Positions 555 through 31,689 of a stretch of 64,000 nucleotides of DNA are shown in pieces. The translations under genes and the position numbers were made by a program. The DNA lies in contig DYKD01000009.1 in assembly GCA_020722765.1 (NCBI GenBank), positions 1,718-65,717 on the forward strand. Direction: 5' to 3'. This DNA comes from Brevinema andersonii. GTDB taxonomy: Bacteria > Spirochaetota > DYKD01. Numbering within the stretch: position 1 is the first letter of the stretch; each line of letters starts with the position of its first letter. The notes under the pieces were generated by a model. That model was not told the origin of the DNA. It did no database searches and saw nothing but the letters and a program-made list of their open reading frames with translations.

Positions 555-929
555 ATGGAAATTACCATAGCATTCATCTGTCTTATTGTCATAGGCGTTC
601 TCATGCTGTTCAAACCGGAACCTGACCCGAAAGGGTTGAGCTATTTCAGGTTCAGGATCTGGTTCCCTGACCAGGATTATACATACACGGAGGACTATTG
701 CATGCCGGATGGTCCGGTAGTCCTGTTCGGACGAACCATAGTTCTCAACCTCACAGTGGGAGTCAGACCTGAGATGGTGCATGTATTGGGGGATGAACCC
801 GAGAAACGAGTACACAATCAGGCGACGCTCATCGCACTGGTTGAGGCGGAAACAGACCCGCTAATCAAAATCGCCTATGCACATGGAAGCGGGAATTCCA
901 AGCTCAAAGCCAAATATCCACTTAAGTAA
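555..929 (+). CDS. hypothetical protein with N-terminal TM helix
   Basis: AAGGAGG precedes the ATG at 555 (internal Met of track ORF 465..929). N-terminus is ITIAFICLIVIGVLMLF. Confidence 0.6.
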   Translation: MEITIAFICLIVIGVLMLFKPEPDPKGLSYFRFRIWFPDQDYTYTEDYCMPDGPVVLFGRTIVLNLTVGVRPEMVHVLGDEPEKRVHNQATLIALVEAETDPLIKIAYAHGSGNSKLKAKYPLK

Positions 930-941
930 AGGAGGCAACAC

Positions 942-1307
942 ATGTATGGTATAATGTTCATCACACTTTTCATCGTAATGCTGATAACAACCATAGCATT
1001 ATACGAAGCCATGAGCTCGTCGAAAGCGACAGAATGGCTTGTCCAGCTAATGGATAAGAACGTCCTGCTGGCCGCGGCCGTCAACTTCGGCATTTCCAGC
1101 ATCATCGTACTGTTCACTGGTGAGGGTACCGCATCGGGCGCTGCAAATCTTGCGGCAAGTATCGTATTCCCGACATACTGCGTATTGAAACGCAAAGTAT
1201 TCAAGGTACCATACAGGTTCACATACGGGAAAGGTACGGTGGCTGTCGCCATTGGCATTCTGGTAATCGTCATAGCGGTCATAGTCGCGGCAACCATGAC
1301 CAAGTAA
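942..1307 (+). CDS. multi-pass membrane protein (hypothetical)
   Basis: AAGGAGG SD. Several hydrophobic segments. A terminator follows. Confidence 0.65.
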   Translation: MYGIMFITLFIVMLITTIALYEAMSSSKATEWLVQLMDKNVLLAAAVNFGISSIIVLFTGEGTASGAANLAASIVFPTYCVLKRKVFKVPYRFTYGKGTVAVAIGILVIVIAVIVAATMTK

Positions 1308-1312
1308 GCAAT

Positions 1313-1350
1313 ACGGAGTCGGGACTTCCAAGTCCTGGCTCTGTCTTTTT
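1313..1350 (+). terminator. intrinsic terminator T3 (CCTGGCTC family)
   Basis: 15-bp stem ACGGAGTCGGGACTT/AAGTCCTGGCTCTGT containing 3 G-U pairs, followed by CTTTTT. Confidence 0.8.
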
Positions 1351-1377
1351 CAAATAATACTTTAAGGAGGTCCAAGT

Positions 1378-1752
1378 ATGGACACTATTATCCTCCCTCA
1401 GAACGATGAACGCCTGGAATTCAGGTTCCGCGTTCATGTAAAGAACAACATGGTCGGTTACGTTGAAGTACGTGACATCGGGCTCCATGGCTATCAGTCC
1501 TGCTCTTACAGGGTCTTCAAATCAACGAAGAATCCAGGTGAAATCTTCACAATGGGCAAACTGGAATACCAGTACAACGGGGCGACAAAGAGCCTCGGGT
1601 ACGCCTCCAAGGACAGGAAGGCATACATCAACAAGGTACTTCAGGAAAACATCGACCTTATCCTTTCAGGCACAGCAAGCCCGTCAACGAGTTCCGCTCC
1701 ATCCAAAGTGGTGGTCAGTGCCGATGATGAGCTGTTAGAGGAGCAAGCGTAG
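1378..1752 (+). CDS. hypothetical protein
   Basis: TAAGGAGG SD. 124-aa ORF. A terminator follows. Confidence 0.65.
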   Translation: MDTIILPQNDERLEFRFRVHVKNNMVGYVEVRDIGLHGYQSCSYRVFKSTKNPGEIFTMGKLEYQYNGATKSLGYASKDRKAYINKVLQENIDLILSGTASPSTSSAPSKVVVSADDELLEEQA

Positions 1753-1758
1753 GCATAT

Positions 1759-1801
1759 CCGGGTCAGGATTCCAACAAGGAATCCTGGCTCGGTCTTTTT
1801 T
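1759..1801 (+). terminator. intrinsic terminator T4 (CCTGGCTC family)
   Basis: 15-bp stem CCGGGTCAGGATTCC/GGAATCCTGGCTCGG containing 2 G-U pairs, followed by TCTTTTTT. Confidence 0.8.
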
Positions 1802-1832
1802 AGGAAAGAATCCAACTAAAAGGAGGTTCACC

Positions 1833-2339
1833 ATGAGTGAACAGATACAGAAAGCGGTTGAGCAGGCGAAAGCCCAGGAACAGTCGACACGTCAGGCAAT
1901 CAGCAAAGCGCATGGCCAGAAGAAGGATATCAATCTCACCCTCAAGGAAGCGTCAAAGAAGGTTGTCCTTCACATCAAGGGCGGAATGGAGAAAGCGTCG
2001 GTCTGGTATGAGGAATACATGTTCCATACCATGGCGGGAGGTGCCGTTATAGGTTCCACCATGATGATAGTGGCGAACATCCTCGCCGTCAAGTACGGCA
2101 TTACTGGCACCCTTGTAGCATTGTATGTGACAGGTGGATGGGTGCTGTTGGCTCCATTCCTATTCGCAATATTGTACTTCGCAGCCAAGCTCACAATCAA
2201 ACTGGTACGGGCAGCAGTCAATGGGATCAGGAAAGCGCACGCACATGGCCCGGTACTGAAGAAAGCCATTGACGAGAAGATTGAAGAGCTTAAGGTCAAA
2301 CTCGAGAACGGAGTTGACCCTACAGCAGAAACTGCATAA
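1833..2339 (+). CDS. hypothetical membrane protein
   Basis: AAAGGAGG SD. Polar N-terminus followed by 2-3 hydrophobic helices. A terminator follows. Confidence 0.65.
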   Translation: MSEQIQKAVEQAKAQEQSTRQAISKAHGQKKDINLTLKEASKKVVLHIKGGMEKASVWYEEYMFHTMAGGAVIGSTMMIVANILAVKYGITGTLVALYVTGGWVLLAPFLFAILYFAAKLTIKLVRAAVNGIRKAHAHGPVLKKAIDEKIEELKVKLENGVDPTAETA

Positions 2340-2355
2340 CCATTTCCAACTAAGT

Positions 2356-2397
2356 AAGCCGGTAGCCACCCAGTGGCCGCTACCGGCTTGTTTTTTT
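2356..2397 (+). terminator. intrinsic terminator T5
   Basis: AAGCCGGTAGC (2356-2366) pairs with GCTACCGGCTT (2379-2389), followed by a T7 run. Confidence 0.8.
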
Positions 2398-2418
2398 GCC
2401 TGAAGAAAGGTGTAGGAA

Positions 2419-2703
2419 GCGGGGCGGGAGCCCCGCGTAGATGGGAAGGGCCCCATATCCGGATGGACAGTATCACGGGACAACCGAAGTGTGGACGGAA
2501 CGGTCACCAACCATGGGAAGGGACCCATAACAGATCTGCCGGCGCCATAAACAATGGACTGGTAAGGGAATTGTTGCGGGCCGGGAGATTTGGAGCACGG
2601 GCAGGGACCCGTGCGGGCGCAGGATCTCCAAGTGGAGAACCTGGCGCGGGCATTCTTGAATGACGCGCAAGCACAGAGGATGATAGTCGGGCAGGGCCCC
2701 GAC
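2419..2703 (+). repeat. array of five GC-rich stem-loops with a conserved purine-rich loop (candidate structured RNA or protein-binding array)
   Basis: Hairpins lie at 2419-2436, 2441-2456, 2513-2528, 2595-2614 and 2686-2703. Stems end in GGG/CCC. Loops are CGGGAG, AAGGGC, AAGGGA, CAGGGA and CAGGGC. The region has no SD-led ORF. Confidence 0.6.
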
Positions 2704-2733
2704 GTTAAAACTTAGTCTTAAGGAGGTTACACC

Positions 2734-3033
2734 ATGGAAAATGTACGCATGTTCTTCGGAACAGTGGAGTGGTCAGATTCCGAGCTGACAGCCATCGACA
2801 TACCGGCATTCGGAAGGCTCATGATTGACACGGTAGGAAAGCTGGAAATCAGGGCCGGCCAGAAAATCGGAGGCTGGATAGACGAACGGTTGCTGGCTGA
2901 AACGGAGCGCGGACATATTGCTGACATGAGTGTCATAGGTTATCTGGACGGGAAATATGTCCCGTTCAATGCCATGAGATTCGTGGCACAATGTGAAACC
3001 GAGGCGATTGCCAAATCGGCGCTTGAAGACTGA
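2734..3033 (+). CDS. hypothetical protein
   Basis: TAAGGAGG SD. 99-aa ORF. Confidence 0.65.
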   Translation: MENVRMFFGTVEWSDSELTAIDIPAFGRLMIDTVGKLEIRAGQKIGGWIDERLLAETERGHIADMSVIGYLDGKYVPFNAMRFVAQCETEAIAKSALED

Positions 3034-3040
3034 ACAGTAG

Positions 3041-3067
3041 GTCCCCCTGCTTTGGGAACAGGGGGAC
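3041..3067 (+). terminator. terminator-like hairpin with a weak U-tract
   Basis: GTCCCCCTG (3041-3049) pairs with CAGGGGGAC (3059-3067). The downstream sequence is only TTACAAC. Confidence 0.35.
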
Positions 3068-3538
3068 TTACAACTAAAGGTACCCCCTTTCCAAGGGCCC
3101 GCTAACAACAACATCATCCAGGCATTTCCCTGTAGGGAAAACCGGATCTGATTGTCATAAAGGAACCATTCATGCCTTCTGTTAACGATAACGGAAGCTA
3201 CCCCCCGTAGAATGGCTCCTTTAGGGTGTTTAGTGGCATTATACGTTGGGTACGAAAAAATTCACGCAAATCATCCATCCTATACCATATGACATACCGT
3301 TAATGCATATGTTATGGGATATACGCCTGTTCCATATGGGATAACTGGGAATAGGATGTTTCCGGCGCCTTTAAAATGGGTATTTTAAGGCCTTATACGG
3401 GCATCGCAGACGGAATTTCACCTTATCACACTCGTGCGATACGAACCATATTCCCTTGAGGAATTATCATACTCATATGGTTTGCACACTGGCTTGTATA
3501 TCACCATTATCCTATGTGAAATAGGAAAGGAAGGAAAC

Positions 3539-3871
3539 ATGAACATATTAGATATGGCGTTGAAACGGGCTTCAATATCTGTTACTCGGCGCCTCAATAA
3601 GGCCATCGACGGGACGGCGATACGGGTGGAGAGCGTATGCGAGCGCAATGGCGAGGTCATAGTGACGTTGCTTGTGACATCACTGGCGGTTACGATAGTA
3701 TACTCGTATGTCACGGGACAATGGGAAACCACCTCGATATTCGTCGCATGGATGGTCAGCGCAAGCATCGATATAGGTGGTTCCGTATTGAGTGCGGCGG
3801 CATGGCGCAAAATAAAGGAGTATATGAATGAACATCAACGACGCAATGGAACAGCTCCGCAACCAGCCTAG
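3539..3871 (+). CDS. hypothetical membrane protein
   Basis: GGAAAGGAAGG precedes the ATG at 3539 (internal Met of track ORF 3434..3871). Two hydrophobic segments. Confidence 0.5.
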   Translation: MNILDMALKRASISVTRRLNKAIDGTAIRVESVCERNGEVIVTLLVTSLAVTIVYSYVTGQWETTSIFVAWMVSASIDIGGSVLSAAAWRKIKEYMNEHQRRNGTAPQPA

Positions 3872-4121
3872 TACCGGCAGGCTGCGTTCGATGAGATTCA
3901 TCGACGGAGAACTCATGGAACAGAACCAGAAGAAGGACAGCTACTTCGCAAGGTTCGCAAGACATAACCAGGAATATTTCCTGGCCTGGCTGATACCGTT
4001 CGACAACAGCCAATGGAAACTCTATCTTCATGATGGCAAACAGACAATCAGGGTGGACGGTACGAATCAGGAAAAGATAACATTCCTGAAAAACAAGTCA
4101 CTTCACGTCATCGGAGAATGA
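3828..4121 (+). CDS. hypothetical protein
   Basis: AAAGGAG SD. 97-aa ORF. Confidence 0.6.
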   Translation: MNINDAMEQLRNQPSTGRLRSMRFIDGELMEQNQKKDSYFARFARHNQEYFLAWLIPFDNSQWKLYLHDGKQTIRVDGTNQEKITFLKNKSLHVIGE

Positions 4122-4172
4122 CCGGAAACGGCCGCTATGGCAGGTAATGGATCATATAAACCCCCATTCCGG

Positions 4173-4218
4173 CGGAATCAGGCTCCTTCCAACATGGGAG
4201 CCTGGCTCCGTCCTTTTT
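4173..4218 (+). terminator. intrinsic terminator T6 (CCTGGCTCCGTC family)
   Basis: CGGAATCAGGCTCC (4173-4186) pairs with GGAGCCTGGCTCCG (4197-4210), followed by TCCTTTTT. Confidence 0.75.
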
Positions 4219-4244
4219 GAATATCAGAATAGAAGGAGGTTCTT

Positions 4245-4412
4245 ATGGCACGACAGGATGATGCACAGCTCACCATTGATGAGTTCGAGGCGGAACTGGA
4301 AGGTGACAGGATGGCCGACTTTCAGGATTTCCGCATGGAAATGACCGTTCCGGGTGAGACCCATACGCTCGATGAATGGTACGAAATACTTGATGTTTGG
4401 CTGGTAAAATAA
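4245..4412 (+). CDS. small acidic protein (55 aa, below the track cutoff)
   Basis: AGAAGGAGG SD precedes the ATG at 4245. Translation is MARQDDAQLTIDEFEAELEG...; stop TAA at 4410-4412. Confidence 0.5.
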   Translation: MARQDDAQLTIDEFEAELEGDRMADFQDFRMEMTVPGETHTLDEWYEILDVWLVK

Positions 4413-4423
4413 GGAGGTATATC

Positions 4424-4708
4424 ATGGAATTGGACATGAGAATCAGGAAATTCCGTGACATGTCACTGGAGCTTATCAGGAACGGTTTCAGACTGATGAC
4501 ATACCAAGTGGCAGGTAATGCTACACGCATGGCCAAATTCGTATCCGATGAGGATGTACATTATCTCATCGACGACGGAGAAACAGTGAAGTTCCTGTCC
4601 GCGGATGACAAGGATGACATCGATACCATCATGTCATTCGAGACGGTAGCGCAAGAATTTGAGCACTACGAGATGGGCGGAAGAACAGTTTTCGCATTCA
4701 ACCAATAA
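4424..4708 (+). CDS. hypothetical protein
   Basis: AAGGAGG SD precedes the ATG at 4424 (internal Met of track ORF 4397..4708). Confidence 0.6.
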   Translation: MELDMRIRKFRDMSLELIRNGFRLMTYQVAGNATRMAKFVSDEDVHYLIDDGETVKFLSADDKDDIDTIMSFETVAQEFEHYEMGGRTVFAFNQ

Positions 4709-4942: not shown

Positions 4943-5377
4943 ATGGGAATGTATACGGAACTGAAACTCAATGTCGAACTTAAGCAGGATGTTCCAGATG
5001 AAGTAATTCATATATTGGAATACATGCTCGACGATTCGGCTCACCAACCACCATTACCTGACCATCCGTTGTTCAAGACCGCAAGATGGAGCAGGATGCT
5101 ACACTGTGGTTCACCGTACTTTAATACGCCGACCTATTCTGAACTGCTGCACGAGGACTCGACATATGTCCTGAACATACAGTGCAACTTCAAGAATTAC
5201 GACGATGAAATCGACAAGTTCCTTGACTGGCTACGGCCACATATACAGACCGAAGGCATAATAGGCCATCATTGGTATGAGACGGATGATGAACCGACGG
5301 CAATATGGAATATGTGCCAAGACGTCGTCTCTGAAGATTTGAGTCTGGAAAAACATACCATCGTGGAGGAAGTGTGA
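4943..5377 (+). CDS. hypothetical protein
   Basis: AGGAGG SD precedes the ATG at 4943 (internal Met of track ORF 4913..5377). Confidence 0.65.
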   Translation: MGMYTELKLNVELKQDVPDEVIHILEYMLDDSAHQPPLPDHPLFKTARWSRMLHCGSPYFNTPTYSELLHEDSTYVLNIQCNFKNYDDEIDKFLDWLRPHIQTEGIIGHHWYETDDEPTAIWNMCQDVVSEDLSLEKHTIVEEV

Positions 5378-5586
5378 TGAGCACGCAGAATATATTCATC
5401 GAAAAGGCATCATTCGAGGCACTACATACGGAGAGCGTGCTCGTAAGTACGCTGCTGGACAGCAACCTGACGCGCAAGATGAGATGGCGATACCAGGATT
5501 ACCTGGCAGCCATCCACCGGCGCATGAAGGAATTACAAGGAGGTCGAGATGGAATTCAAGCTACTGATCGCAACACTGCTGGTTGA
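5374..5586 (+). CDS. hypothetical protein
   Basis: ATGA start/stop overlap with the upstream gene. Confidence 0.5.
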   Translation: MMSTQNIFIEKASFEALHTESVLVSTLLDSNLTRKMRWRYQDYLAAIHRRMKELQGGRDGIQATDRNTAG

Positions 5587-5920
5587 GACCTGTCTACTCA
5601 TAATGCGTAACCAGGTATCATCGTTCCTATATGAACAAACGGTACAACATGCAGCTGACGTACCGATCAGACGGGAACGGATAAACTGGCTCGTTCCAAG
5701 CGTATTGCTGACCCTGTTATATACCGGTTTGCTGATTGGAATACTGTTCACAAGGATATGGTGGTTTGCAATCATCATCTTTGGGCTATCAGTCATCACC
5801 TCCAGATTCATGAACAAGGCAGAAACATTGCAGGAAATAAAGGATATTGCGCTATTTGATAACCTCATCAGTATTCTCATCACATTTATTGCGATGATAA
5901 TACTAAAGGAGATATCATGA
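5549..5920 (+). CDS. hypothetical membrane protein
   Basis: AAGGAGG SD. 3-4 hydrophobic helices. Confidence 0.6.
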   Translation: MEFKLLIATLLVETCLLIMRNQVSSFLYEQTVQHAADVPIRRERINWLVPSVLLTLLYTGLLIGILFTRIWWFAIIIFGLSVITSRFMNKAETLQEIKDIALFDNLISILITFIAMIILKEIS

Positions 5921-5926
5921 GCAGCT

Positions 5927-6130
5927 ATGAAAGAATGTCCTCATTGCAATGGTTTCGGCTCATCATTCAAGGATCCGGAAGGAGTAGACCACTGCACAAT
6001 GTATGACTGTTCAGGCCTAATAAAGGATGAAACCAAAGGAGAACCAGATGGAACACATATACCATGGCGACCGGAAGATCGCCGAAAAGGAGGACGAGGA
6101 TTATCGTCAGGAAGTGACATTCCTGCTTGA
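5927..6130 (+). CDS. small zinc-finger protein (CxxCxGxG)
   Basis: Contains a CPHCNGFG DnaJ-type Zn-finger motif. The SD is weak and the 3' part overlaps the next ORF. Confidence 0.45.
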   Translation: MKECPHCNGFGSSFKDPEGVDHCTMYDCSGLIKDETKGEPDGTHIPWRPEDRRKGGRGLSSGSDIPA

Positions 6131-6338
6131 AGACAGGGAAGAAAACTTCCTGTTTGAAGAGCAAACATGTATCCATGGAAACCCGTTGGCATATCCTTGT
6201 CCTGACTGCGCGGTCGAAAGACTGGCGCATGGAACAAAGAGGAACGAGGAGAAAATCCCATTAAGGAGGTTAGATGAAAGTCATGCAAAATCTGCGTCAT
6301 ATTTATCTGAAATGGAAGATGCGGAAGACACTCAATGA
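6048..6338 (+). CDS. acidic hypothetical protein
   Basis: AAAGGAG SD precedes the ATG at 6048 (internal Met of track ORF 6027..6338). Confidence 0.5.
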   Translation: MEHIYHGDRKIAEKEDEDYRQEVTFLLEDREENFLFEEQTCIHGNPLAYPCPDCAVERLAHGTKRNEEKIPLRRLDESHAKSASYLSEMEDAEDTQ

Positions 6339-11480: not shown

Positions 11481-11758
11481 CCAATGATGACATCTCTTTG
11501 GTAAATATCGTATCGGTACTTACCCCCGAACAGAAAGCTGTTTTTGATAACAGCGGGCTTCACAAGGTCGTGGAAACATTCGGTACTAAGGAAGACAATG
11601 TCACAGTCCTAAAGACTGAGTTGGGCAATCTGGTAATAGCCGAGAATCTCAGGCATATCATACCGGTGAAAATAAATATGGATTTAAGGCATCCTGTACT
11701 CATGCTTGGCGCTTTCAGATGGAGGATATTCGACGACGGAATAGAAATTCATATCTAG
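11477..11758 (+). CDS. hypothetical protein
   Basis: ATGA overlap with the RNase H gene. 93 aa. Confidence 0.55.
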   Translation: MTNDDISLVNIVSVLTPEQKAVFDNSGLHKVVETFGTKEDNVTVLKTELGNLVIAENLRHIIPVKINMDLRHPVLMLGAFRWRIFDDGIEIHI

Positions 11759-11766
11759 GAGGCAGT

Positions 11767-14406
11767 ATGATCGTCCATGTTGACGGAACTGCGATAGACA
11801 TATCCCGGACAAGAAATACCAAGGACAATTTGCTCATTGTCATCAAGGTAACCGGGAACATAGTCAGAAACTATGAGCTGGAAGTGGTAGATTATAAGGC
11901 TATGACTAGCCGATCTACGGTTGAATTTGCCCCAATCCATATGGATTCCAAAGGCAATATCATCGTCAATAATCATGTTGTCATAACCGAAGACAATCTA
12001 ATAAGACTTAACGATGGAACATTCGAGAACTCAGCAATAACGAACGAATTCAATGCTCAGAAGATATTGAATAGAACAATCATAGATAATCCTATCTATG
12101 GCGCACTATTCTTGGCTATTACAGGAAAGGAACCTGAATCTATCAACATGTTATCTCTCAATGATGTAAATGAGATCATCAGTAATAGGGACATTATACC
12201 TAAGATCTGGAATGTCAAATATAAAGGTCTCCATATATGGCGTCTTAATCAGAGAGAAGAATATGTATATCAGGCTGTACTCAGAAAAGTTTACCAGATG
12301 GTATTTGAGAATCTAACAGAATCAAGGCTCAAGTATGCCATACGAAAACTGAATCTTTCCAAACAGGAAGCTATCTTCAACAAGCATCAGGCAATTGCAG
12401 CAAGCCATAAGGTTGATATCCCATGGGAAGCTGGCATGATAAACATGCTGGAATATGATGCCAATCTGATCCCTAATGATACCCCGCAGAACGGAAACGC
12501 AGGTCTGGTTGTCGCCAAAGTCTATAAGGAACAGAATGGAAAACGTTTCTCATATCTTCAGTGGATAAACCAATGGGCTGAAAACTGCTCCCCTAACCGG
12601 CAGATTGTAGCTAGATATGTCACTCAGATTTGCGAACTTACAAACCGGAACTTCAAGGACAATCTTGTCAACCTCTTCGCTGCCAGAATGACATACATGG
12701 GATATACGCTAGAAGATGGTTGCGTCATATCTGAAACAACCGCCGAGAAATTCAGATGTTACGACATCAATATTGACAGGTTCATAGTCCGCAATCCAAA
12801 ACTGACGGTCCAACCTCTCGCCAATTTCGACGCATACATGTACGAATACCTGATACAGGATGATGCGCCATTTGTCAACAGGGGTTACCTTGGAACATAT
12901 AATGGTGATAACGAAATCAGAAGCAAATATTATGGCATAGTCACCAATATTGACATAACAGAAACGGAAATCGAAGGTGAATACCTGGTCATTGTCGAGA
13001 CCACATCAGTATTGAGATTACGTGAAGGGGATAAGTTAGCTGATTTGCATGGCAACAAAGTCACAGTAACAAAGATACTGCCTAGTGAACTGATGCCAAG
13101 AGCTTGTGGTAAATATCTTGATATCATTGTCCCACCATGGATTGGCAAACGCGGTTCTGCAAGCAGACTGAAAGAAGAGGAACATTCAACGGTTCATAAT
13201 GTCGCAGTAGTGACAGATTCCCTGAATGACACATTCTATCAGGATGTGGCGGTAGGTCATGTGACCTATATCCGGTTAAGCCAGCATGCAAAGAAGAAAC
13301 TCAACTATAGCCATAAGACAGAAACCAATTATATGGGGCTGGTACCTAAAGGTTATGGGTTGTACAGTTTTGCAGATGCAATGTACCACATGGAAGCGGT
13401 TGGTGCCAAAGACCTGATGATGGAAATCCTAAATAGGACATATGATACAAACAGTCCAGAACTCCTGAATCAGCATCTCAAATGCTTCGGCTTCGAACTG
13501 ATAAAGGGTAGAATTACAGGGCTTTCAAAGACCCCATTCTTCACTGCTCCTGATAATGATATTATCCTAGACAAATTCGTTAATGCTGAAGAGATTGCAA
13601 CACTTGCAGATCCTACCGGTACGGTCCTTGATCCTAGAATATTATATTCTCATTCATGGATAAGAATACCTGAAGGATTACAGCTGACTTTCCATGCCCT
13701 TACCTCGCAATTACGTATCCACAGCTATGACCATGAATATGTGACACACAAGCTGGTAGATGATATGAGCTGGATGAAACGCTATGATATAAGTTTCGGC
13801 CATCTGATGACAGATGGTAAGAAACAGGTATTCATCCGCATACCTCCCGGATTGCGGACATGGACAACGAAGACAGATACAGTGACCTTATCAGATATTC
13901 AGCATCAGTTAAACCAGCTGATAATGCAATTGAAGACATATGAGCAGACAAGGTTCAGGGCCATGCAATTTGATCCTTCAAGACGAATCAATATGCTCGT
14001 GAACAAGCTGTTGGATTCGATGCTGTCAAGAATATTCACGAAATCAGGATTACTCCGCAACACCATCCATCCAAGAACAAAGTTCTCCATGAATGCGGTA
14101 TTAGGCTCGAATCCTGAACTTCCACTTGACACATGTGAAATCCCATTAGAAGCATTCCATGATTATCTCAAAGATGAGGAATTCCGCAAAGCATATGGAC
14201 TAAGTGAGATAGAAGACCCTGACATAGGCGAGATTAATTTCGCCATTGAAAAGATGGATGCAAGATGCCTCGTAATGAGAAATCCTGCACATCAGGTAAG
14301 GAACTGCCAAGGAATGCGATTTAGAGTATGGGCTGGAAATTCAATCAGGATAAATCCGGCAATCGTCAAAGTCTTCGATAAACAAAACAATCTCCGTATG
14401 TGTTGA
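11767..14406 (+). CDS. single-chain beta/beta-prime-like RNA polymerase, 5' exon (raw ORF; the last ~11-17 codons are probably intronic read-through)
   Basis: AGGAGG SD. Beta motifs: MGYTLEDGCVISE, GDKLADLHGNKVTVTKILPSELMP...DIIVPPWIGKRGSASRL and FADAMYHMEAVGA. These are followed by the beta-prime motif RNPAHQVRNCQGMRFRV...IRINP. Confidence 0.8.
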   Translation: MIVHVDGTAIDISRTRNTKDNLLIVIKVTGNIVRNYELEVVDYKAMTSRSTVEFAPIHMDSKGNIIVNNHVVITEDNLIRLNDGTFENSAITNEFNAQKILNRTIIDNPIYGALFLAITGKEPESINMLSLNDVNEIISNRDIIPKIWNVKYKGLHIWRLNQREEYVYQAVLRKVYQMVFENLTESRLKYAIRKLNLSKQEAIFNKHQAIAASHKVDIPWEAGMINMLEYDANLIPNDTPQNGNAGLVVAKVYKEQNGKRFSYLQWINQWAENCSPNRQIVARYVTQICELTNRNFKDNLVNLFAARMTYMGYTLEDGCVISETTAEKFRCYDINIDRFIVRNPKLTVQPLANFDAYMYEYLIQDDAPFVNRGYLGTYNGDNEIRSKYYGIVTNIDITETEIEGEYLVIVETTSVLRLREGDKLADLHGNKVTVTKILPSELMPRACGKYLDIIVPPWIGKRGSASRLKEEEHSTVHNVAVVTDSLNDTFYQDVAVGHVTYIRLSQHAKKKLNYSHKTETNYMGLVPKGYGLYSFADAMYHMEAVGAKDLMMEILNRTYDTNSPELLNQHLKCFGFELIKGRITGLSKTPFFTAPDNDIILDKFVNAEEIATLADPTGTVLDPRILYSHSWIRIPEGLQLTFHALTSQLRIHSYDHEYVTHKLVDDMSWMKRYDISFGHLMTDGKKQVFIRIPPGLRTWTTKTDTVTLSDIQHQLNQLIMQLKTYEQTRFRAMQFDPSRRINMLVNKLLDSMLSRIFTKSGLLRNTIHPRTKFSMNAVLGSNPELPLDTCEIPLEAFHDYLKDEEFRKAYGLSEIEDPDIGEINFAIEKMDARCLVMRNPAHQVRNCQGMRFRVWAGNSIRINPAIVKVFDKQNNLRMC

Positions 14407-14798
14407 CATCAGACCAAAAGTGTTATCTAATATGAGTATCCAGAACTAAGGAGACTCATATGAGAAAGTATTTTACTGGTCGGAAGTACAACAAGAACTT
14501 CTTTAACCAAATCGATTCAAAGGAGAAAGCCTGAAACTTCAAGATATATTCTATGCAGAACCTCCAAAATTCAGGTTAAAGAGGAAAGAGATTAAGTTTC
14601 AACTGTCGAAGTAAAATCCTTCTCAAACGGTGAATCCCCACTTAAATGAGGGCAACGCCGTACCAAAACCCATAGGAATATGGATAATGGTCTATCGACT
14701 TATAGGACTCCAGAACGGAGTTACTAGGAGGCTTTCAAGCCTAAATGAAGGACATCCGAAAGGATGAAGGAATAGTCAGTGCCACTAGTAATAGTGGG
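14356..14798 (+). mobile_element. putative self-splicing (group I-like) intron in the RNAP gene; outer bounds of two candidate 426-nt solutions
   Basis: A ~370-nt ORF-poor gap splits a conserved motif. GNRA-capped hairpins: CATCC-GAAA-GGATG at 14752-14765 and CCACTA-GTAA-TAGTGG at 14782-14797. Long-range pair CCTGAA/TTCAGG at 14529-34/14569-74. Candidate U/G splice pairs are 14355/14781 or 14372/14798. Confidence 0.6.
14459..14533 (+). pseudogene. possible remnant of a LAGLIDADG-type homing endonuclease ORF inside the intron
   Basis: An AAGGAG SD (sequestered in hairpin 14429-14460) precedes MRKYFTGRKYNKNFFNQIDSKEKA*. By my recollection this resembles the ..FF..ID.EEKAYWLG lead-in of LAGLIDADG enzymes, and it stops right where the motif would start. 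Confidence 0.3.
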
Positions 14799-15666
14799 GA
14801 ACATGGGTGATTTCGATGGCGATACTGCGATTGGATACTTTCCAATAAGCAAAGAGGCAATGGAAGACCTGAAGAAATTCACATTGGAAGACCATATCAG
14901 ACATTTTATAACAGAGAAAGACCTGAAAGGATTCAGGATATTACCGACACTACGCCAGAATGATATGTCTATCCGACGATGGTACAAGCACAATACGGGC
15001 ATATCAGAGACTAAGAAAGATCTTGTGGCTCGTTATGGAGAAGCCAAAGCTGCTAACTTCAACAAGCTGTATAATGCAGAATATTCACCAGAAGAACTGT
15101 TCGACATGCAGAAGGATGCAGCTGGTGAATTCAGTTACATGAAATCAGGAACTGCGAATGCCGGCAATATTGGTAACCTGTTACGCAACCTGATGTACAA
15201 GGAACATGGGATGACCGGTATCAAGGTCGCCAACCACGTATATCATGTGCTAGCCCAAGCGGCACTGGATTGCAAGAATTCACTGACTGATAGGGCGAAA
15301 CTGGATACCGCATTCATGGCTTTCAGAAGTTACAAGATGGATAAGCCGACATTCGTGGAAGCGCTAAGTCCATACTTTAAGGACATAATAATAGACACAC
15401 TATGGAAGGTTCTGACAAAGAACGGACGATGGCAGGGAAACATAACAAGCGTGATAGCAAGGAACATGCCGATAGCCCACATAGTGAATGCTGGCAAAGT
15501 ATCAGACCTGTATCTTGCCGCGCTGAATACCAAACTAGGGAAGAAGGAAGGAAGTTTCGTCGAGTATCTGACTGAATTCATCCATCCTCGCAACGATCTG
15601 ATGATTAAGAAAACACTGACTAAGGAAGAGGACATAGTGATCCTATCCACGGACGACGAACCATAA
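14779..15666 (+). CDS. single-chain beta/beta-prime-like RNA polymerase, 3' exon (raw ORF)
   Basis: PLVIVGNMGDFDGDTAIGY matches the universal NADFDGD Mg-binding loop. AGNIGNLLRNLMY resembles the bridge helix. There is no SD or ATG at the ORF start. Confidence 0.8.
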   Translation: MPLVIVGNMGDFDGDTAIGYFPISKEAMEDLKKFTLEDHIRHFITEKDLKGFRILPTLRQNDMSIRRWYKHNTGISETKKDLVARYGEAKAANFNKLYNAEYSPEELFDMQKDAAGEFSYMKSGTANAGNIGNLLRNLMYKEHGMTGIKVANHVYHVLAQAALDCKNSLTDRAKLDTAFMAFRSYKMDKPTFVEALSPYFKDIIIDTLWKVLTKNGRWQGNITSVIARNMPIAHIVNAGKVSDLYLAALNTKLGKKEGSFVEYLTEFIHPRNDLMIKKTLTKEEDIVILSTDDEP

Positions 15667-15672
15667 TGGATT

Positions 15673-15700
15673 GAGGGCGGGCGGATCCCCGTTCGCCCTT
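15673..15700 (+). terminator. hairpin terminator candidate after the RNAP gene
   Basis: GAGGGCGGGCGG-atcc-CCGTTCGCCCTT stem followed by a T-rich TAATTCCTTTATT. Confidence 0.45.
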
Positions 15701-15724
15701 AATTCCTTTATTAAGAGGGTAAGT

Positions 15725-16357
15725 ATGAGAGAACCAGTGATGCGTATCAATAAGCGCTGTATCATATGCAACACTGATATGGGGCTAGTCCTCCCAAAGA
15801 AGAAAGTCTGCAGCGAAAGTTGTGCGAACAAACTATACTATAGAACCAGGATGATTAACGGTAAACAACATGCATACCGTAAGAAGACAGCGGAAGCTTT
15901 CCGGCAATACTATAAGGAATATATGGAGAAGCTCCGCAAAACCGGCAAAGACAAACAATACCGGGAAAAAGGCAAGCATATGCTGCGTCTGAAAAGATGG
16001 TTAAACCGTGCTTTGCATTCCCTAAGACTGGAAGAACCCAGAAGGTGCCCCATCTGCAACAGGCAGATCCTCTCCAGGATATCAGCAGAATCTGCAACAG
16101 GATCAAGAGGGAAATATTGTTCCGCCAAATGCAGGAGCCGCGCCAACTACCTGGAACTCAAGACAAACAGACCGGAGATACTACGTAAATACCGGCGTAC
16201 AAATGTAATTAATAACCATGAATATTTAAAGGCATATTGGCGGAAATATTCCAAACGCAAATATGAACGGTTAAAGGAGGTAAAAAATCATGACATATCA
16301 GGAAGCGAGGCAGCTAGCATCAGAAATACTGGAGCAGAAGGTGGATGCCAGATATGA
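15725..16357 (+). CDS. basic protein with two CxxC...CSxxC zinc ribbons
   Basis: GAGGG SD precedes the ATG at 15725. Contains CIICNTD...KKKVCSESCANKLYY and CPICNRQ...GKYCSAKCRSRANY. Confidence 0.6.
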   Translation: MREPVMRINKRCIICNTDMGLVLPKKKVCSESCANKLYYRTRMINGKQHAYRKKTAEAFRQYYKEYMEKLRKTGKDKQYREKGKHMLRLKRWLNRALHSLRLEEPRRCPICNRQILSRISAESATGSRGKYCSAKCRSRANYLELKTNRPEILRKYRRTNVINNHEYLKAYWRKYSKRKYERLKEVKNHDISGSEAASIRNTGAEGGCQI

Positions 16358-23031: not shown

Positions 23032-25185
23032 ATGATTACCGTAGACAACGAAGTATACTACGTCCCGCAAGCGATCAAACCAAAAGAAAAAGTCAGAGGT
23101 ACCAGGATATTCCAGTCGATCGCATCGGTTTGTACCAAGATAGGTAAGACATATCTGGCGGAGATCGCCCAGGAAATGGCGAAATTATCCAATAAGACAA
23201 CTACCATAGATACCGTACTTGAGCGCGCAAAAAGCATCACCTTGAGGGATGCCCGCACTGAAGTCAACATGCACGACCTCATAATAGCTACAATGATGGA
23301 AACAGGTATCCAGAACCAGAAGATACTTCAGGTAGTTACCAGATTAGGTGTAGGCAACTCGCCGCTTTATTCGCCACTTGTCGGTAACATACTCCCTGAT
23401 GCCCTGGAGGCGGTCATCGTCGGACGCAGCAACGAGATTGCGAAAGTAGCAATGATGATGAACAAGCGTTCCAGAATCATCGCTCTTGTAGGAAATAAGG
23501 GCGTGGGTAAGAACTCAATCGTGACTGGCGTAGCAAAGGCCATAGCTTCGGGTAAGTTCCCAAGCCTGCATTCAGCTATCCTGGACCTGAACCGCATACT
23601 AGATTTCACCGCCAAATTGGCACCTGAAAATGACGCCAAGAGGATCTTCTTACCAACTGCCATGCTAGAAGATAAGAACTGCTATGTATATATCAACCAT
23701 GAACAATTCGCGAGATCCGTGAATATCATGGATGCTATCGTCTTCCTGATCGACAATGGCCTCAATATCATCCTGAATACCACAGCAGATTACATCAAGC
23801 ATGTGGAAAAGAACGCCAACCTGTTCCATCACATCGAACGTCTGGATGTGGAACAGATGCCGAAGGACCTTGCATTGCAGGCCATCAAGATCTCCAAACC
23901 GCGGATAGAGGAGAAATACATGTGTGAGATTCCGGATTCGATCTGTGAGTTCACAATGAGCATATCCTCGCGGTTCCCGATGGAACAGTCCCAGCCAGGC
24001 AGGACTCTCACTATCCTGGAACAGGCGGTCGCCGTGAAACGGCTCGGTAATCTTGATACAATCGAGAACCTCAATAAGACTGATATTTCCAAGCTGCTGC
24101 TGGACCAGAAGTACCAGGAAGCGAAAGAGCTGATAACCACCAACCATGATTATATCATGACTGGCCTGAAAATAAGCAGAATCATCGTGGAAGAGAAGGA
24201 TATCTCCGACCTGATGGTATCCCATCTGGGAATCAGTCCGAATGTACCGGCAGGTGCTATCACTTCCGACAGCATCAAACAGCTCAGTTTCCTTGAGACA
24301 TATGTCAATGAATACGTCTTCGGGCAGAAGGAAGCTGTAAAGGCCATCTGCGATTCGATCCGCAGAAAGGCGCTGAACATGACAACTGAACATACACCTC
24401 CAAGTTTCCTATTGGTAGGAACTACAGGTACAGGTAAGACATATACTGCCAAGAAGATCGCCGAACTCATGTTCGGTAGCGAGAACGCGCTTATCAGGAT
24501 TGACATGTCGGAATATACCGAACGCCATACCATCTCAAAACTGGTAGGAGCCCCTCCCGGATATGTGGGATATGAGGATGGCGGGCAATTAACGGATAAA
24601 GTCCGCAAGCGGCCACATTCGGTTATCCTACTTGATGAAATCGAGAAAGCGCACAAGGAAGTCCTAAATATCCTGTTGCAGGTCTTATCGGATGGCAGAC
24701 TGACTGATGGCAAAGGAAGGACAGTGTCCTTCAGCGAGTCCATAATAATCATGACATCAAATCTGGGTACTAAGTCCCAAGTTGGCGATATCGGTTTTGG
24801 CGCGGATACTACGAAGATCACCAAAACCAACGTCATGGATTCCGTCAAGGCATTCTTCTCGCCTGAGCTGTTCAACAGGATAGGCAGAATTGTGATGTAC
24901 AACAGTCTTGGTAAGGAAGAGATCCGCAGGATAATCCTACGTGAACAGGATATAGCCTCCAAGAATACAAAATTCAAGTTGCAGTTCACTGAGAAAGTGA
25001 CAGCATATCTTGAGAAGAAGATCGCCGATAACGGTAACGTCGAGATTTATGGAGGTAGGGAAGTCAACAGACTAGTACAGGAACACCTGTTCGACCAAGT
25101 TACTGAAATGATACTCAAGTATGGGAAAACCCCGACAGAAGTATCGGTTGATTATGATACAGAACTTAAAGTGAGCGTAAAATGA
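23032..25185 (+). CDS. ClpC/ClpA-type double-ring AAA+ unfoldase with a degenerate first AAA+ ring (D1)
   Basis: The second ring (D2) has GTTGTGKT, ILLDEIEKAH, GAPPGYVGY and TSNLG...DIGFGA (ClpP-docking loop). D1 has Walker A GNKGVGKNS and Walker B VYINHEQF. Confidence 0.9.
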   Translation: MITVDNEVYYVPQAIKPKEKVRGTRIFQSIASVCTKIGKTYLAEIAQEMAKLSNKTTTIDTVLERAKSITLRDARTEVNMHDLIIATMMETGIQNQKILQVVTRLGVGNSPLYSPLVGNILPDALEAVIVGRSNEIAKVAMMMNKRSRIIALVGNKGVGKNSIVTGVAKAIASGKFPSLHSAILDLNRILDFTAKLAPENDAKRIFLPTAMLEDKNCYVYINHEQFARSVNIMDAIVFLIDNGLNIILNTTADYIKHVEKNANLFHHIERLDVEQMPKDLALQAIKISKPRIEEKYMCEIPDSICEFTMSISSRFPMEQSQPGRTLTILEQAVAVKRLGNLDTIENLNKTDISKLLLDQKYQEAKELITTNHDYIMTGLKISRIIVEEKDISDLMVSHLGISPNVPAGAITSDSIKQLSFLETYVNEYVFGQKEAVKAICDSIRRKALNMTTEHTPPSFLLVGTTGTGKTYTAKKIAELMFGSENALIRIDMSEYTERHTISKLVGAPPGYVGYEDGGQLTDKVRKRPHSVILLDEIEKAHKEVLNILLQVLSDGRLTDGKGRTVSFSESIIIMTSNLGTKSQVGDIGFGADTTKITKTNVMDSVKAFFSPELFNRIGRIVMYNSLGKEEIRRIILREQDIASKNTKFKLQFTEKVTAYLEKKIADNGNVEIYGGREVNRLVQEHLFDQVTEMILKYGKTPTEVSVDYDTELKVSVK

Positions 25186-29339: not shown

Positions 29340-30568
29340 ATGGGCAAGGCTGGGAAATCACTGCTTGATCCTGCTACTGAGGAGATTTCCGGCACAGAAG
29401 CCCTACCTGCTAAGAAGATACAGAAACAGATCTACCGTAAGATAGAGGATCTGTATGATTTTGTGTCTACAGGTGTCCCTGTCATGTTCGTACATGACAG
29501 GGACATCCGGGGTTTCTTCTGCACGGACAATACGAAAATCGGGATCGGACCACTATTGGATACACATAAGATCTATATGATGTCACAAGGTTTCAGCATG
29601 ATCTCGATCGAGAAACAGAAATTGGCGAATCATACCATCAAGTTCACTGAAGTGAACGCGCCGGATGAGATAGGAACAATGTCACCAATAACGAATCCGG
29701 CACTGGGCCTGGATTATTTCCTCGACAAGATGCCGACAAAAATTGTAGGTGAAACAACAGATGCAGTCCTGGTTTTGTCATATGATCCGGATATAATCAA
29801 TGACAATAACAAGATAACAGGCACCTTAAGGGACCATTATAATGATATGGTCATGACGATCCAGCGTGACATCGTGAAAAGACGACCAAACCAGCACGTT
29901 AACACAAGGAATAGTCCTACACTACATACATCAGTGGGAGAATATGATCCAGGCTCAAACGATGGAACGCCAGAATCCATTCCTTCTAGAGTTGTGATAA
30001 TATTGAGTTCGAGACCGCAATTACCTCCAAGGCTAAATGGTTATTGTCTCAATGTTGGCACAATCATCAGACATTTGGTCTCGAATACGAAAGGTGAAAA
30101 CAGGTTACCACATAGCCTGACAAGTAGCCTCACCACTACTGAAATACTATTGGCACAAAGGTTATATGATACATCGGCTGATGATGCGAAAGTAAAACGC
30201 TTCAGAAAAGCGGTATTCACTTCCAATAATGTCATTGAAGACATTACTGATTATCCGTCCATGAAAGACATAGGCGGGTATGATAACCTGAAAGCGTTCA
30301 TCGAAACTAGGAAGACATTGCTTGATAAGTACTATAATAAGATGCTGGAACGTAATCTGCAGATCAAAGGTATCTTCATTGCAGGTGTTCCAGGATCCGG
30401 TAAAACCCAGATATTGAAAGCCCTAGGTTCCTACTGGGGATTGCCGGCATACCGTTTACGGCTAGAAGCGGTCTTCGGCAGATATGTCGGAGATTCGGAA
30501 AGTGCGCTGATTTCGGCGCTGGAAAACCTGCAGAAACTGTCCCCTTGCTTCGTATTATTGGATGAGAT
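29340..30568 (+). CDS. classical-clade AAA+ ATPase (CDC48/FtsH-like module), 5' exon
   Basis: Walker A GVPGSGKT, then YVGDSE, then Walker B FVLLDEI at the exon end. The raw ORF runs on to 30596. Confidence 0.8.
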
Positions 30569-31193
30569 TAAATTATCAGTCTCCTTGGCGGCGTGAGCCG
30601 TCATGAAAAAGCGGGTCAATTGCTGGAAACCCCTTAAGCCTATTAGGCTACAACATAATCCGCAAGGATAAGTGTGAATGCTTGAAAACTAATAGGATTG
30701 GACAATCAGCAGCCACTTCCTGGGAACAGGAAAGGTTCAGAGACTACGAGTCCGCTAAGTTGGCAGCCAGCTTCTTCTAGTAGATAATATACTAAATACT
30801 AGAAGGAGTAGGCTATGATGTATAACATTGTACAAGCATCAAAGATGCTAAACAGAAGCAAACGAGAAGCTGTACTAGAACTAGATAATAATGAATGTCA
30901 GTTATGTGGCGATGACCAAGATTTGGTCGTACATCATATAGATGAGAAAAGCAGTAGAAATTCAGATACTCCAAATAATAGTTTGGATAATCTGATTACG
31001 CTCTGTAAACAATGTCATTATTATTGTCATTGGCATACTAGATTTAATGCTATTAAGCATAAAATTCTAGTTATTGCCGACAAGTTCAAGTTATTTATTA
31101 GTGATCAACTTAAAGATATAGTCCGAACTCGTATGAGAATACGAGAGGATGGCAGAAATGACCATCCAGCCGGATAACCGGTGTTAACAGTTG
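30569..31193 (+). mobile_element. group I intron carrying an HNH homing endonuclease
   Basis: R element GTTCAGAGACTAC at 30735-30747. S element AAGATATAGTCC at 31113-31124. P7 pairs GACTA with TAGTC. P1 pairs GAGAT (30564-68) with GTCTC (30579-83), with a U-G at the splice site. P10 pairs TTATCA (30573-78) with TGATAA (31194-99). The terminal intron G (omega-G) is at 31193. There are several GNRA hairpins. Confidence 0.85.
30815..31177 (+). CDS. HNH homing endonuclease (intron-encoded)
   Basis: CQLCGDDQDLVVHHID...NLITLCKQCHYYCH. GGAG SD. AT-rich relative to the flanks. Confidence 0.85.
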   Translation: MMYNIVQASKMLNRSKREAVLELDNNECQLCGDDQDLVVHHIDEKSSRNSDTPNNSLDNLITLCKQCHYYCHWHTRFNAIKHKILVIADKFKLFISDQLKDIVRTRMRIREDGRNDHPAG

Positions 31194-31689
31194 TGATAAG
31201 TCATTAGCAGGAGTAGGAGAAGGTGAAGTAGCAGGTTCCGATGTACCTAAGAGGGTCTTCGGTATCCTATTGGATAAGATGGCTGAAAGTACAGGCATCA
31301 TTTTCGGTGCCAGTGCCAACAGGGTAAAATCCATACCAGAGGAATTCATGAGACGTGGTCGTTTTGACCGCATCTTCTTCATGGATCTTCCGGATATAAA
31401 AGCTAGGATGAAGATCATATCTATCCATCTAGGCAAGCACGGTTACGATCATAAGCAGTTCACACATGATGAACTGACACAGATGGTTGATTCAATGGAT
31501 AAGTTTACAGGTGCGGAAATCGAATCGGTGATTACTGAGGCGATTATCCAGTCCCTGGTAGACAATGATGGTAAGCTTACTGCTAGCCATATCATAAAGA
31601 AAGCCAACGAAACAACAACCATCGACAAGAACAAAACAGACATCAAGGAACTCGCTGCATGGGCTGAAAAGTTCGCAACGAAGGCCTGA
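31194..31689 (+). CDS. classical-clade AAA+ ATPase, 3' exon
   Basis: The spliced junction reads LLDEI|DKSLAG. ASANRVKSIPEEFMRRGRFDRIFFMDLPD matches the sensor-1/Arg-finger/second-region-of-homology (SRH) pattern. Track ORF 31270..31689 has no SD. Confidence 0.8.

Follow-up and report, generated by a model that had tools for sequence, protein, structure and literature searches.

The window analysed here, 64,000 nucleotides (nt) of contig DYKD01000009.1, likely carries on its + strand one gene for a compact single-chain two-barrel RNA polymerase (RNAP) of the beta/beta-prime type, split by a group I intron. The interval consists of two open reading frames (ORFs), 11719-14406 (895 amino acids, aa) and 14779-15666 (295 aa, with a GTG start), and the 372 nt between them are without a long ORF. 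The true start of the first ORF is ATG 11767, with AGGAGG and the stop codon of the upstream gene 5' of it. Joined, the two ORFs encode 1,157 aa, which is 42% of the combined length of Escherichia coli beta and beta-prime (1342 + 1407 aa). An initial annotation of the interval had proposed a chain of this size, less than half of the two bacterial subunits together, with a beta-type barrel followed by a beta-prime-type barrel. The size was reproduced exactly, the motifs that it quoted are all present in the order it gave, and both Pfam domains, the profile comparisons and all of the catalytic residues bear out the succession of the barrels.

Homology to beta and beta-prime across the splice junction

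The exon junction was set by comparison with P0002, a 1,162-aa homolog that is 60% identical to the spliced product over 100% of the query and is its sole close relative in a collection of 5.8 billion proteins. P0002 is a single called gene on a 64-kb Joint Genome Institute (JGI) contig and is uninterrupted across the junction (...NINPAIVKMLD869|G870DFDGDTGIAL). The match of the first ORF to it ends at ...INPAIVKVFD, and that of the second restarts at GDFDGDTAIGY. The same exon continuity was found when the window was aligned at the DNA level with the homologous contig L001. Given the continuity of P0002, exon 1 ends at 14379 and exon 2 starts at 14806, so that splicing would remove 426 nt and yield the 1,157-aa product, with the junction between residues 871 and 872 (VFD|GDFDGD).

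In the spliced protein, PF00562 (RNA_pol_Rpb2_6, the beta barrel) matches aa 384-457 with 36.4 bits against a cut-off of 23.4, and PF00623 (RNA_pol_Rpb1_2, the beta-prime barrel) matches aa 834-895 with 29.8 bits against a cut-off of 25.3. The PF00623 match straddles the junction at 871/872. When the unspliced ORFs were scanned singly only PF00562 was found, and both curated cut-offs were passed solely after splicing.

Profile comparisons and conservation counts were based on an alignment of 30 family members (A2). By hhalign, A2 matches beta with a probability of 99.4% (E 1.1e-21; aa 260-556 with E. coli beta 658-1292) and beta-prime with a probability of 98.3% (E 1.8e-14; aa 689-896 with E. 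coli beta-prime 242-483), about 500 residues aligning with the two subunits in total. Searched against a large database, the family profile recovered beta (E 1e-20) and beta-prime (E 1e-14) of cellular enzymes, and it gave direct matches to E. coli RpoB and RpoC. The AlphaFold2 model based on A2 has a predicted local distance difference test (pLDDT) score of 81.8 and a predicted TM-score (pTM) of 0.81, and its best Foldseek matches in the PDB are RNAP beta chains (E 3.5e-15, probability 1.0). The global TM-scores are low (about 0.3), as expected because a fused chain was compared with one subunit.

The intervening sequence and its splice sites

The sequence between the exons has the anatomy of a group I intron inserted one codon ahead of DFDGD (exon 1 ...GUC UUC GAU | GGU GAU UUC... 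exon 2). In the predicted fold of minimum free energy, the end of exon 1, CUUCGAU, together with the first intron A pairs with the internal guide sequence UGUCGAAG to form P1, in which the splice-site U lies opposite G (U.G). As read from the sequence, a P10 is possible between the ACU 5' of the guide G and GGU of exon 2, and the last base of the intron is G14805. The region folds more stably than its shuffles (z-score -5.2), and its core matches RF00028 with 37.9 bits (E 4e-8 in a 651-nt search), where the gathering score is 50.

Strong comparative support for the intron comes from a distant family member, L096 (Logan SRR24319152_79598), the polymerase gene of which is interrupted by two bona fide group I introns, at 3591-3947 (85.1 bits) and 5377-6324 (96.3 bits). 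One is inside the beta lysine motif (KITDLHS|NKASI...). The 3' splice site of the other (96.3 bits, E 2e-25) abuts the DFDGD codons, one codon off the site used in the window. As both L096 introns are in catalytic motifs, both motifs are intron targets. The DFDGD-side intron of L096 has in its 5' part a 212-aa LAGLIDADG ORF that starts with MAYFDKIDTKDKAYILGYLFADG. At the same 5' position, the intron in the window has a 24-codon mini-ORF, the end of which (...NFFNQIDSKEKA, before its stop codon) is similar to that start. Based on this short resemblance, the mini-ORF is probably the stump of a lost LAGLIDADG homing-endonuclease gene. By blastn, the intron in the window has no nucleotide similarity to phages or to the L096 intron.

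A second group I intron is found in the window at 30559-31145 (RF00028, 65.1 bits, above the Rfam threshold). It interrupts an AAA+ ATPase gene (29340-30596 and about 31146-31689) just past ...FVLLDEI and encodes a 120-aa ORF (30815-31177) with HNH-like motifs (DLVVHHIDE...CKQCH). With this above-threshold example in the same window, introns are at home in the genome.

If there were no splicing, the ORFs would encode separate subunits (879 aa, and 295 aa from GTG 14779) of a split enzyme like those of jumbo phages. Gene callers do list two proteins here (P0001 and P0004), jumbo phages have split enzymes (PMC7598289), and the family itself includes a split version (L004, described below). However, the break in the window is inside a barrel, one codon ahead of DFDGD, whereas the natural split in the family is near residue 580, and the residues past the junction in the unspliced frames (KQNNLRMC before the stop codon, and MPLVIVGNM) have no counterpart in P0002. 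In addition, no Shine-Dalgarno-like motif was seen 5' of GTG 14779, the gap between the ORFs shows group I features, and the bona fide intron of L096 is at a nearly identical site. Two unspliced subunits are accordingly extremely improbable, and we read the interval as one intron-bearing gene.

Catalytic residues and domain organization

Eight residues are invariant in all two-barrel RNAPs: in beta an aspartate and two lysines eight apart (K...K), and in beta-prime the R-x-P and D-x-D-x-D motifs (PMC2919709). The spliced protein has all eight (D317, K423, K431, R838, P840, D873, D875 and D877). Three further residues, E316, K759 and R462, have as their E. coli counterparts in the alignments beta E813, beta-prime K334 and beta R1106, respectively. 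Conservation is complete in the family (30/30 members) for D317, K423, K431, P840, D873, D875, D877 and R462, while R838 is found in 28/30, K759 in 29/30 and E316 in 25/30. The carboxylate that precedes the beta aspartate (Rpb2-E836) separates nearly all other two-barrel polymerases from the lineage of YonO and the RNA-dependent RNA polymerases (RdRPs), and switch 2 and the funnel residues (Rpb2-R1020) mark the DNA-dependent two-barrel enzymes (PMC2919709). The extra carboxylate, the switch 2 lysine and the funnel arginine of the cellular-type clade are all present, as E316, K759 and R462.

The regions that carry these residues are listed in Table 1. At the N-terminus, aa 1-262 gave no hhalign match to beta or beta-prime. 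Within this region, IPNDTPQNGNAGLV (aa 235-248) resembles E. coli beta region D (CPIETPEGPNIGLI), a lead only, as it is outside the significant hhalign range. In the cellular-type clade the beta barrel is interrupted by the flap, a sandwich-barrel hybrid motif (PMC7824862). The segment at its place, putatively a strongly shortened flap, has strands and a disordered tip (366-383), with 104 residues from the ED to the GDK motif versus about 250 in E. coli. The beta-homologous core also contains FADAMYHMEAVGA at aa 535-547. The connector that follows includes the point where related split enzymes change genes: in a phmmer alignment, P0002 residue 617 is opposite residue 39 of P0016, a beta-prime-like protein, and the extrapolated start of P0016 is near residue 580.

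In the beta-prime-homologous region, the AlphaFold2 model and hhalign place a two-helix hairpin (710-728, 738-756) where the clamp helices are expected, and IRINP...GDFDGD spans aa 860-877. The initial annotation had seen no evident sigma-binding or clamp regions, which was too strong a statement, as aa 689-757 align with beta-prime 242-330 (the lid and clamp coiled-coil). The C-terminal domain includes a long 40-residue helix (966-1005), MKSGTANAGNIGNLLRNLMY at aa 983-1002, and a conserved YHxLAQxxLDxK motif. What the initial annotation called bridge-helix-like gained neither a profile match nor a fold match; with the C-terminal domain alone (model pLDDT 78.7), Foldseek gave no PDB match below E 2.5. 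By position only, helix 966-1005 is a candidate for the bridge helix.

The last residue of exon 1, D871 (14377-14379), occupies the site of N458 in E. coli beta-prime (the first residue of NADFDGD), where 19/30 members have Asp and only 4/30 have Asn. E. coli N458 has been linked to ribose selection, and the sugar specificity of a polymerase with D871 may therefore differ.

Table 1. Features of the polymerase gene and its intron (positions in the window)
Feature	Position	Strand	Basis or remark
Shine-Dalgarno AGGAGG	11757..11762	+	4 nt 5' of ATG 11767; upstream ORF ends at 11758; read from sequence
Exon 1 (aa 1-871)	11767..14379	+	ORF list; end set by intron-less homolog P0002
Family-specific N-terminal region (aa 1-259)	11767..12543	+	Beta-rich, then helical domain (AlphaFold2)
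Beta-homologous core (aa 260-556), putative, much shortened flap	12544..13434	+	hhalign, PF00562, Foldseek
MGYTLEDGCVISE (aa 311-323); E316-D317, beta-side metal B ligands (predicted)	12697..12735	+	Corresponds to E. coli beta E813-D814
GDKLADLHGNK... (aa 421-444); K423 and K431, basic-loop lysines	13027..13098	+	Corresponds to E. coli beta K1065, K1073
Connector between halves (aa 557-688)	13435..13830	+	No hhalign match to beta/beta-prime
Beta-prime-homologous region, exon 1 part (aa 689-871)	13831..14379	+	Lid, clamp-helix hairpin, switch 2, most of barrel
Switch 2-like TKSGLLRNTIHPRTKFSMNAVLGSNPELPLDTCEIP, K759	14038..14145	+	Corresponds to E. coli beta-prime segment ending CGLP
RNPAHQVRN... 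(aa 838-854), R838-x-P840	14278..14328	+	Corresponds to E. coli beta-prime R425-A-P427
Group I intron, 426 nt	14380..14805	+	U at -1, G last base; P0002 comparison; RF00028; fold
24-codon mini-ORF MRKYFTGRKYNKNFFNQIDSKEKA (then stop) with own AAGGAG site	14460..14534	+	5' part of polymerase intron
Intron catalytic core, Rfam match	14568..14798	+	RF00028
Internal guide sequence UGUCGAAG	14604..14611	+	Minimum-free-energy fold
Exon 2 (aa 872-1157 and stop)	14806..15666	+	ORF list, alignment to P0002
DFDGD metal A loop (D873, D875, D877)	14809..14823	+	PF00623, hhalign
All-helical C-terminal domain (aa 897-1132)	14881..15588	+	Invariant K984, G991, Y1017, K1028
Disordered acidic tail	aa 1133-1157	+	AlphaFold2 model
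Terminator-like 17-bp GC-rich hairpin	15668..15705	+	2 nt past stop codon; tail CTTTATTAAG moderately T-rich

Family and distribution

When 1.84 billion cluster representatives were searched exhaustively with P0002, 351 matched at E <= 1e-3. About 28 clusters (50% identity) are fused proteins of 1,075-1,271 aa, in which the GDK...K motif is found at positions ~430-530 and the DxDGD motif at ~830-1,000. The fused members that were looked up are all metagenomic and are unnamed or called 'hypothetical protein', on contigs of up to 234, 217 and 137 kb; one of them, P0003, is encoded as one gene on viral contigs (IMG/VR) of 120 and 234 kb. Pairwise identity in the family is only about 20%. Smaller fused forms of 829-1,045 aa, with both motifs, are also unnamed and are in some cases on contigs of up to 238 kb (P0050, P0053, P0056, P0057, P0075, P0084, P0099, P0119 and P0129).

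About 11 representatives, 527-572 aa long, have the beta-prime half only. In L004 (Logan SRR30503342_59728, 855-4476), a 630-aa Rpb2_6 gene ends in TAA and is followed after 10 nt by a 572-aa beta-prime-like gene, and true two-gene versions therefore exist. A rough neighbour-joining tree, which is crude and an indication only, has the split forms scattered over two groups within the fused ones. The initial annotation had taken the chain to be a fusion and had considered that related genomes might always have the halves as separate genes. They do not, as at least about 28 clusters are fused and P0002 and P0003 are single genes on contigs of 64-234 kb; the fusion thus stands, with the qualification that some relatives truly are two adjacent genes, as in L004.

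Most of the viral contigs that the family profile found in IMG/VR (L010-L085) carry a single ORF of ~2,000-2,180 aa, in which GDK...K is near residue 780 and DFDGD near residue 1,400. These appear to be larger fused beta/beta-prime polymerases, widespread in uncultivated phages, and may be nearer to those of the mReC phages than to the compact family.

Among cultured phages (50,697 GenBank records), megablast with the gene and tblastn with P0002 and P0020 were empty and tblastn with P0010 gave three weak partial matches only, and thus the cultured phages yielded no relative. Only nine loci were recovered from 185,579 species genomes, all in metagenome-assembled genomes of unrelated phyla, a scatter from which the host is not inferable. 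A word-index protein search returned the window's own fragment and P0002 only. The family-profile search of the large database was swamped by cellular beta and beta-prime, and the family was recovered only by the exhaustive search of representatives.

Single-chain two-barrel polymerases are known as a class (PMC5467207, PMC2919709, PMC10770324), with YonO, crAss gp66, the P23-45 enzymes and killer-plasmid Orf6 as examples. We found no description of the compact phage family in the literature, most subscription journals not being covered. Of the novelty that the initial annotation had expected, the part that concerns this family and its architecture holds, while fused single-chain enzymes as a class were already known.

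Relationship to known two-barrel polymerases

Judged by the residues and profile matches above, the family belongs with the cellular-type clade and not with YonO, crAss gp66 or P23-45. In its build it is like Orf6 of the killer plasmid pGKL2, a single chain of ~1,000 aa with a beta-like half followed by a beta-prime-like half, in which roughly half of each subunit is deleted, a lineage-specific insert is found at the junction, both barrels are kept, and similarity to the cellular subunits is still detectable (PMC2919709). Fused Orf6-like derivatives fall in the clade of the cellular enzymes (PMC10770324). Unlike the phage polymerase, with which it was compared by description only, Orf6 is from eukaryotic cytoplasmic plasmids and giant viruses, and it has a reported bridge helix whereas none is demonstrable in the phage polymerase.

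Based on sequence comparison, the nearest phage enzymes are the split polymerases of phiKZ and AR9 (PMC7598289, PMC7824862). The nearest PHROGs are phrog_3295 (27/30 members) and phrog_2987 (19/30), the beta-like and beta-prime-like subunits of jumbo-phage polymerases, though the matches are short and weak. The best PDB sequence match of exon 1 is the AR9 beta-like chain 7s00_C, and the AR9 non-virion polymerase has been studied structurally (PMC9209446). As with the phiKZ and AR9 non-virion enzymes, the contigs are jumbo-sized, and no sigma factor is known for either. In contrast to the one 1,157-aa chain, each of those enzymes is assembled from four or five polypeptides, which between them amount to full-length beta and beta-prime, the latter being split past its barrel (PMC7598289). 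The initial annotation was thus right to set the chain apart from the jumbo-phage sets, as it was in setting it apart from the T7 type.

YonO of SPbeta is likewise a phage-encoded single chain of ~100-130 kDa with both barrels, and it has been proven to transcribe late genes as a processive DNA-dependent polymerase (PMC5467207). However, the similarity of YonO to beta and beta-prime is limited to a few residues, and it has no carboxylate equivalent to E836 (PMC5467207, PMC2919709), whereas the present polymerase passes both Pfam cut-offs and keeps E316, switch 2 and the lid, which also distinguishes it from other QDE-1-like enzymes. The crAss gp66 and P23-45 gp64 and gp96 enzymes are also phage-encoded, with both barrels in one chain via a connector (10.1101/2020.03.07.982082, PMC10770324). 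Unlike the present family they form part of the QDE-1-like clade, and they are 2,180 aa in length, fused to a tape-measure protein, or without similarity to the cellular subunits; crAss gp66 and P23-45 gp96 are virion proteins. The mReC Caudovirales resemble the present phages in being uncultivated tailed phages, some >200 kb, with a polymerase that is readily aligned with the cellular subunits (PMC7481178). Their definition required a match of 800 aa or more to each subunit separately, and they have full-size subunits (PMC7481178), versus 1,157 aa for both halves here.

Predicted function

In the mechanism that we propose, the intron would self-splice, restoring the beta-prime-type barrel and its metal loop. 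The beta-type barrel (E316, D317, K423, K431 and R462) and the beta-prime-type barrel (R838, P840, D873, D875 and D877), linked by the ~130-residue connector, would then carry out two-metal RNA synthesis at their interface. D873, D875 and D877 would hold metal A, with E316 and D317 helping to hold metal B, and K423, K431 and R838 would bind the 3' end of the RNA and the incoming nucleoside triphosphate (NTP). The enzyme would thereby transcribe the phage's own genes from DNA.

The enzyme is probably a DNA-dependent transcriptase of phage genes, DNA dependence being probable because it keeps a lid, a clamp-helix hairpin and a switch 2, features common to DNA-dependent members of the superfamily. 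It might instead be an RNA-dependent or otherwise specialised polymerase of the QDE-1 lineage, or an inactive relic, given that the QDE-1/YonO-like lineage shows the versatility of the fold (PMC2919709) and that activity in the family is a prediction from sequence. We consider this very unlikely. E316 is present, the carboxylate that the YonO-like enzymes and RdRPs are without, as are switch 2 and the funnel arginine R462, which are common to the DNA-dependent members (PMC2919709), and the catalytic residues are invariant at ~20% pairwise identity, which argues for selection on activity.

With chances a little short of even, the ~1,150-aa chain represents the founding, previously undescribed family of minimal cellular-type phage RNAPs, with fused and two-gene forms in large uncultivated phages, that initiate and elongate alone. 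With somewhat lower but still considerable probability, the chain would be a catalytic core only, in need of one or more phage or host proteins (sigma-like, or like gp226 or gp68) for promoter recognition or assembly. This is compatible with a DNA-dependent two-barrel transcriptase and is a refinement of it. The hairpin kept in the family is equivalent to the beta-prime clamp helices, the region that binds sigma in bacteria. The AR9 and phiKZ non-virion polymerases reportedly depend on an additional phage subunit. Jumbo-phage polymerases are generally multisubunit (PMC7598289), and over 40% of the present chain is specific to the family. However, YonO and P23-45 gp64 and gp96 extend RNA unaided (PMC5467207, PMC10770324), and no candidate factor was recognised beside the polymerase gene.

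As to when the enzyme acts, many phages with two-barrel polymerases have a copy in the virion (PMC7598289, PMC10770324), and the present one could be packaged to transcribe early genes rather than made after infection for middle or late genes. This is unlikely, as the gene is among same-strand replication and recombination genes, outside any structural module, and there is no second polymerase in the 64 kb of the window, the rest of the genome being outside the data.

Several observations weigh against an active, intron-bearing single-chain transcriptase. The intron is below the Rfam gathering threshold and was unreported in both scans of the whole window, and splicing is a prediction. The beta-prime barrel was recognised by profile matches, the best Foldseek matches of the whole model being beta chains, and a bridge helix and trigger loop are not demonstrable, as hhalign of aa 897-1157 against beta and beta-prime was empty. 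No relatives outside the family were detected for aa 1-259, the connector or the C-terminal 260 aa. No promoter motif was found in 32 intergenic regions, where k-mer enrichment gave ribosome-binding sites and T-runs only, and sigma-70-like sites are no commoner than in shuffles. Pfam scans of the neighbouring genes found no specificity factor, the only hit being a weak zinc-finger match, and the window has no virion genes.

The two large subunits of cellular RNAP comprise roughly 2,700 residues, and which of their parts are essential is hard to test. If active, the 1,157-residue chain would be a natural minimal enzyme that can still be aligned with beta and beta-prime, keeping both barrels together with the lid, switch 2 and the funnel arginine, with no detectable beta lobes or beta-prime N- and C-terminal modules. 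Should it also initiate and elongate alone, no member of the cellular-type clade would be smaller, and it would directly model which parts of the multisubunit enzyme can be dispensed with, while having beta/beta-prime signatures that the YonO, crAss and P23-45 enzymes have lost. The fused, split and 829-1,045-aa forms open gene fusion and reduction in the superfamily to study, and the enzyme is a candidate single-gene transcriptase unrelated to that of T7. The intron one codon from the metal loop and the introns of L096 are examples of the targeting of highly conserved codons, the most conserved of all, by homing introns, and such introns explain why gene callers and databases hold the enzyme only as fragments.

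Genomic context

The window is made up of genes for replication, recombination and nucleotide metabolism in a block on one strand, and is probably part of a larger phage genome. The genes include those for an RNase H, a Clp-type ATPase, a B-family DNA polymerase, helicases, a clamp loader, UvsX, a primase-helicase and exonucleases. Within the 64 kb there are no tRNA genes, no second RNAP-like gene, and no alpha- or omega-like partner.

The terminator-like hairpin behind the polymerase gene overlaps the nominal TTG start of the following ORF, the start of which is therefore probably further downstream. This ORF (15671-16357) has two CxxC...C zinc-ribbon-like repeats (a weak zf-FCS match of 21.5 bits, below the cut-off), and in its place the homologous contig L001 has two 112-aa genes. 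A ClpB/Clp-type AAA ATPase is encoded at 23032-25185, ~7 kb downstream of the polymerase, and on the contigs with P0003 such an ATPase is directly beside the polymerase (L002 6841-9033), which suggests that the order of the polymerase and Clp ATPase genes is conserved.

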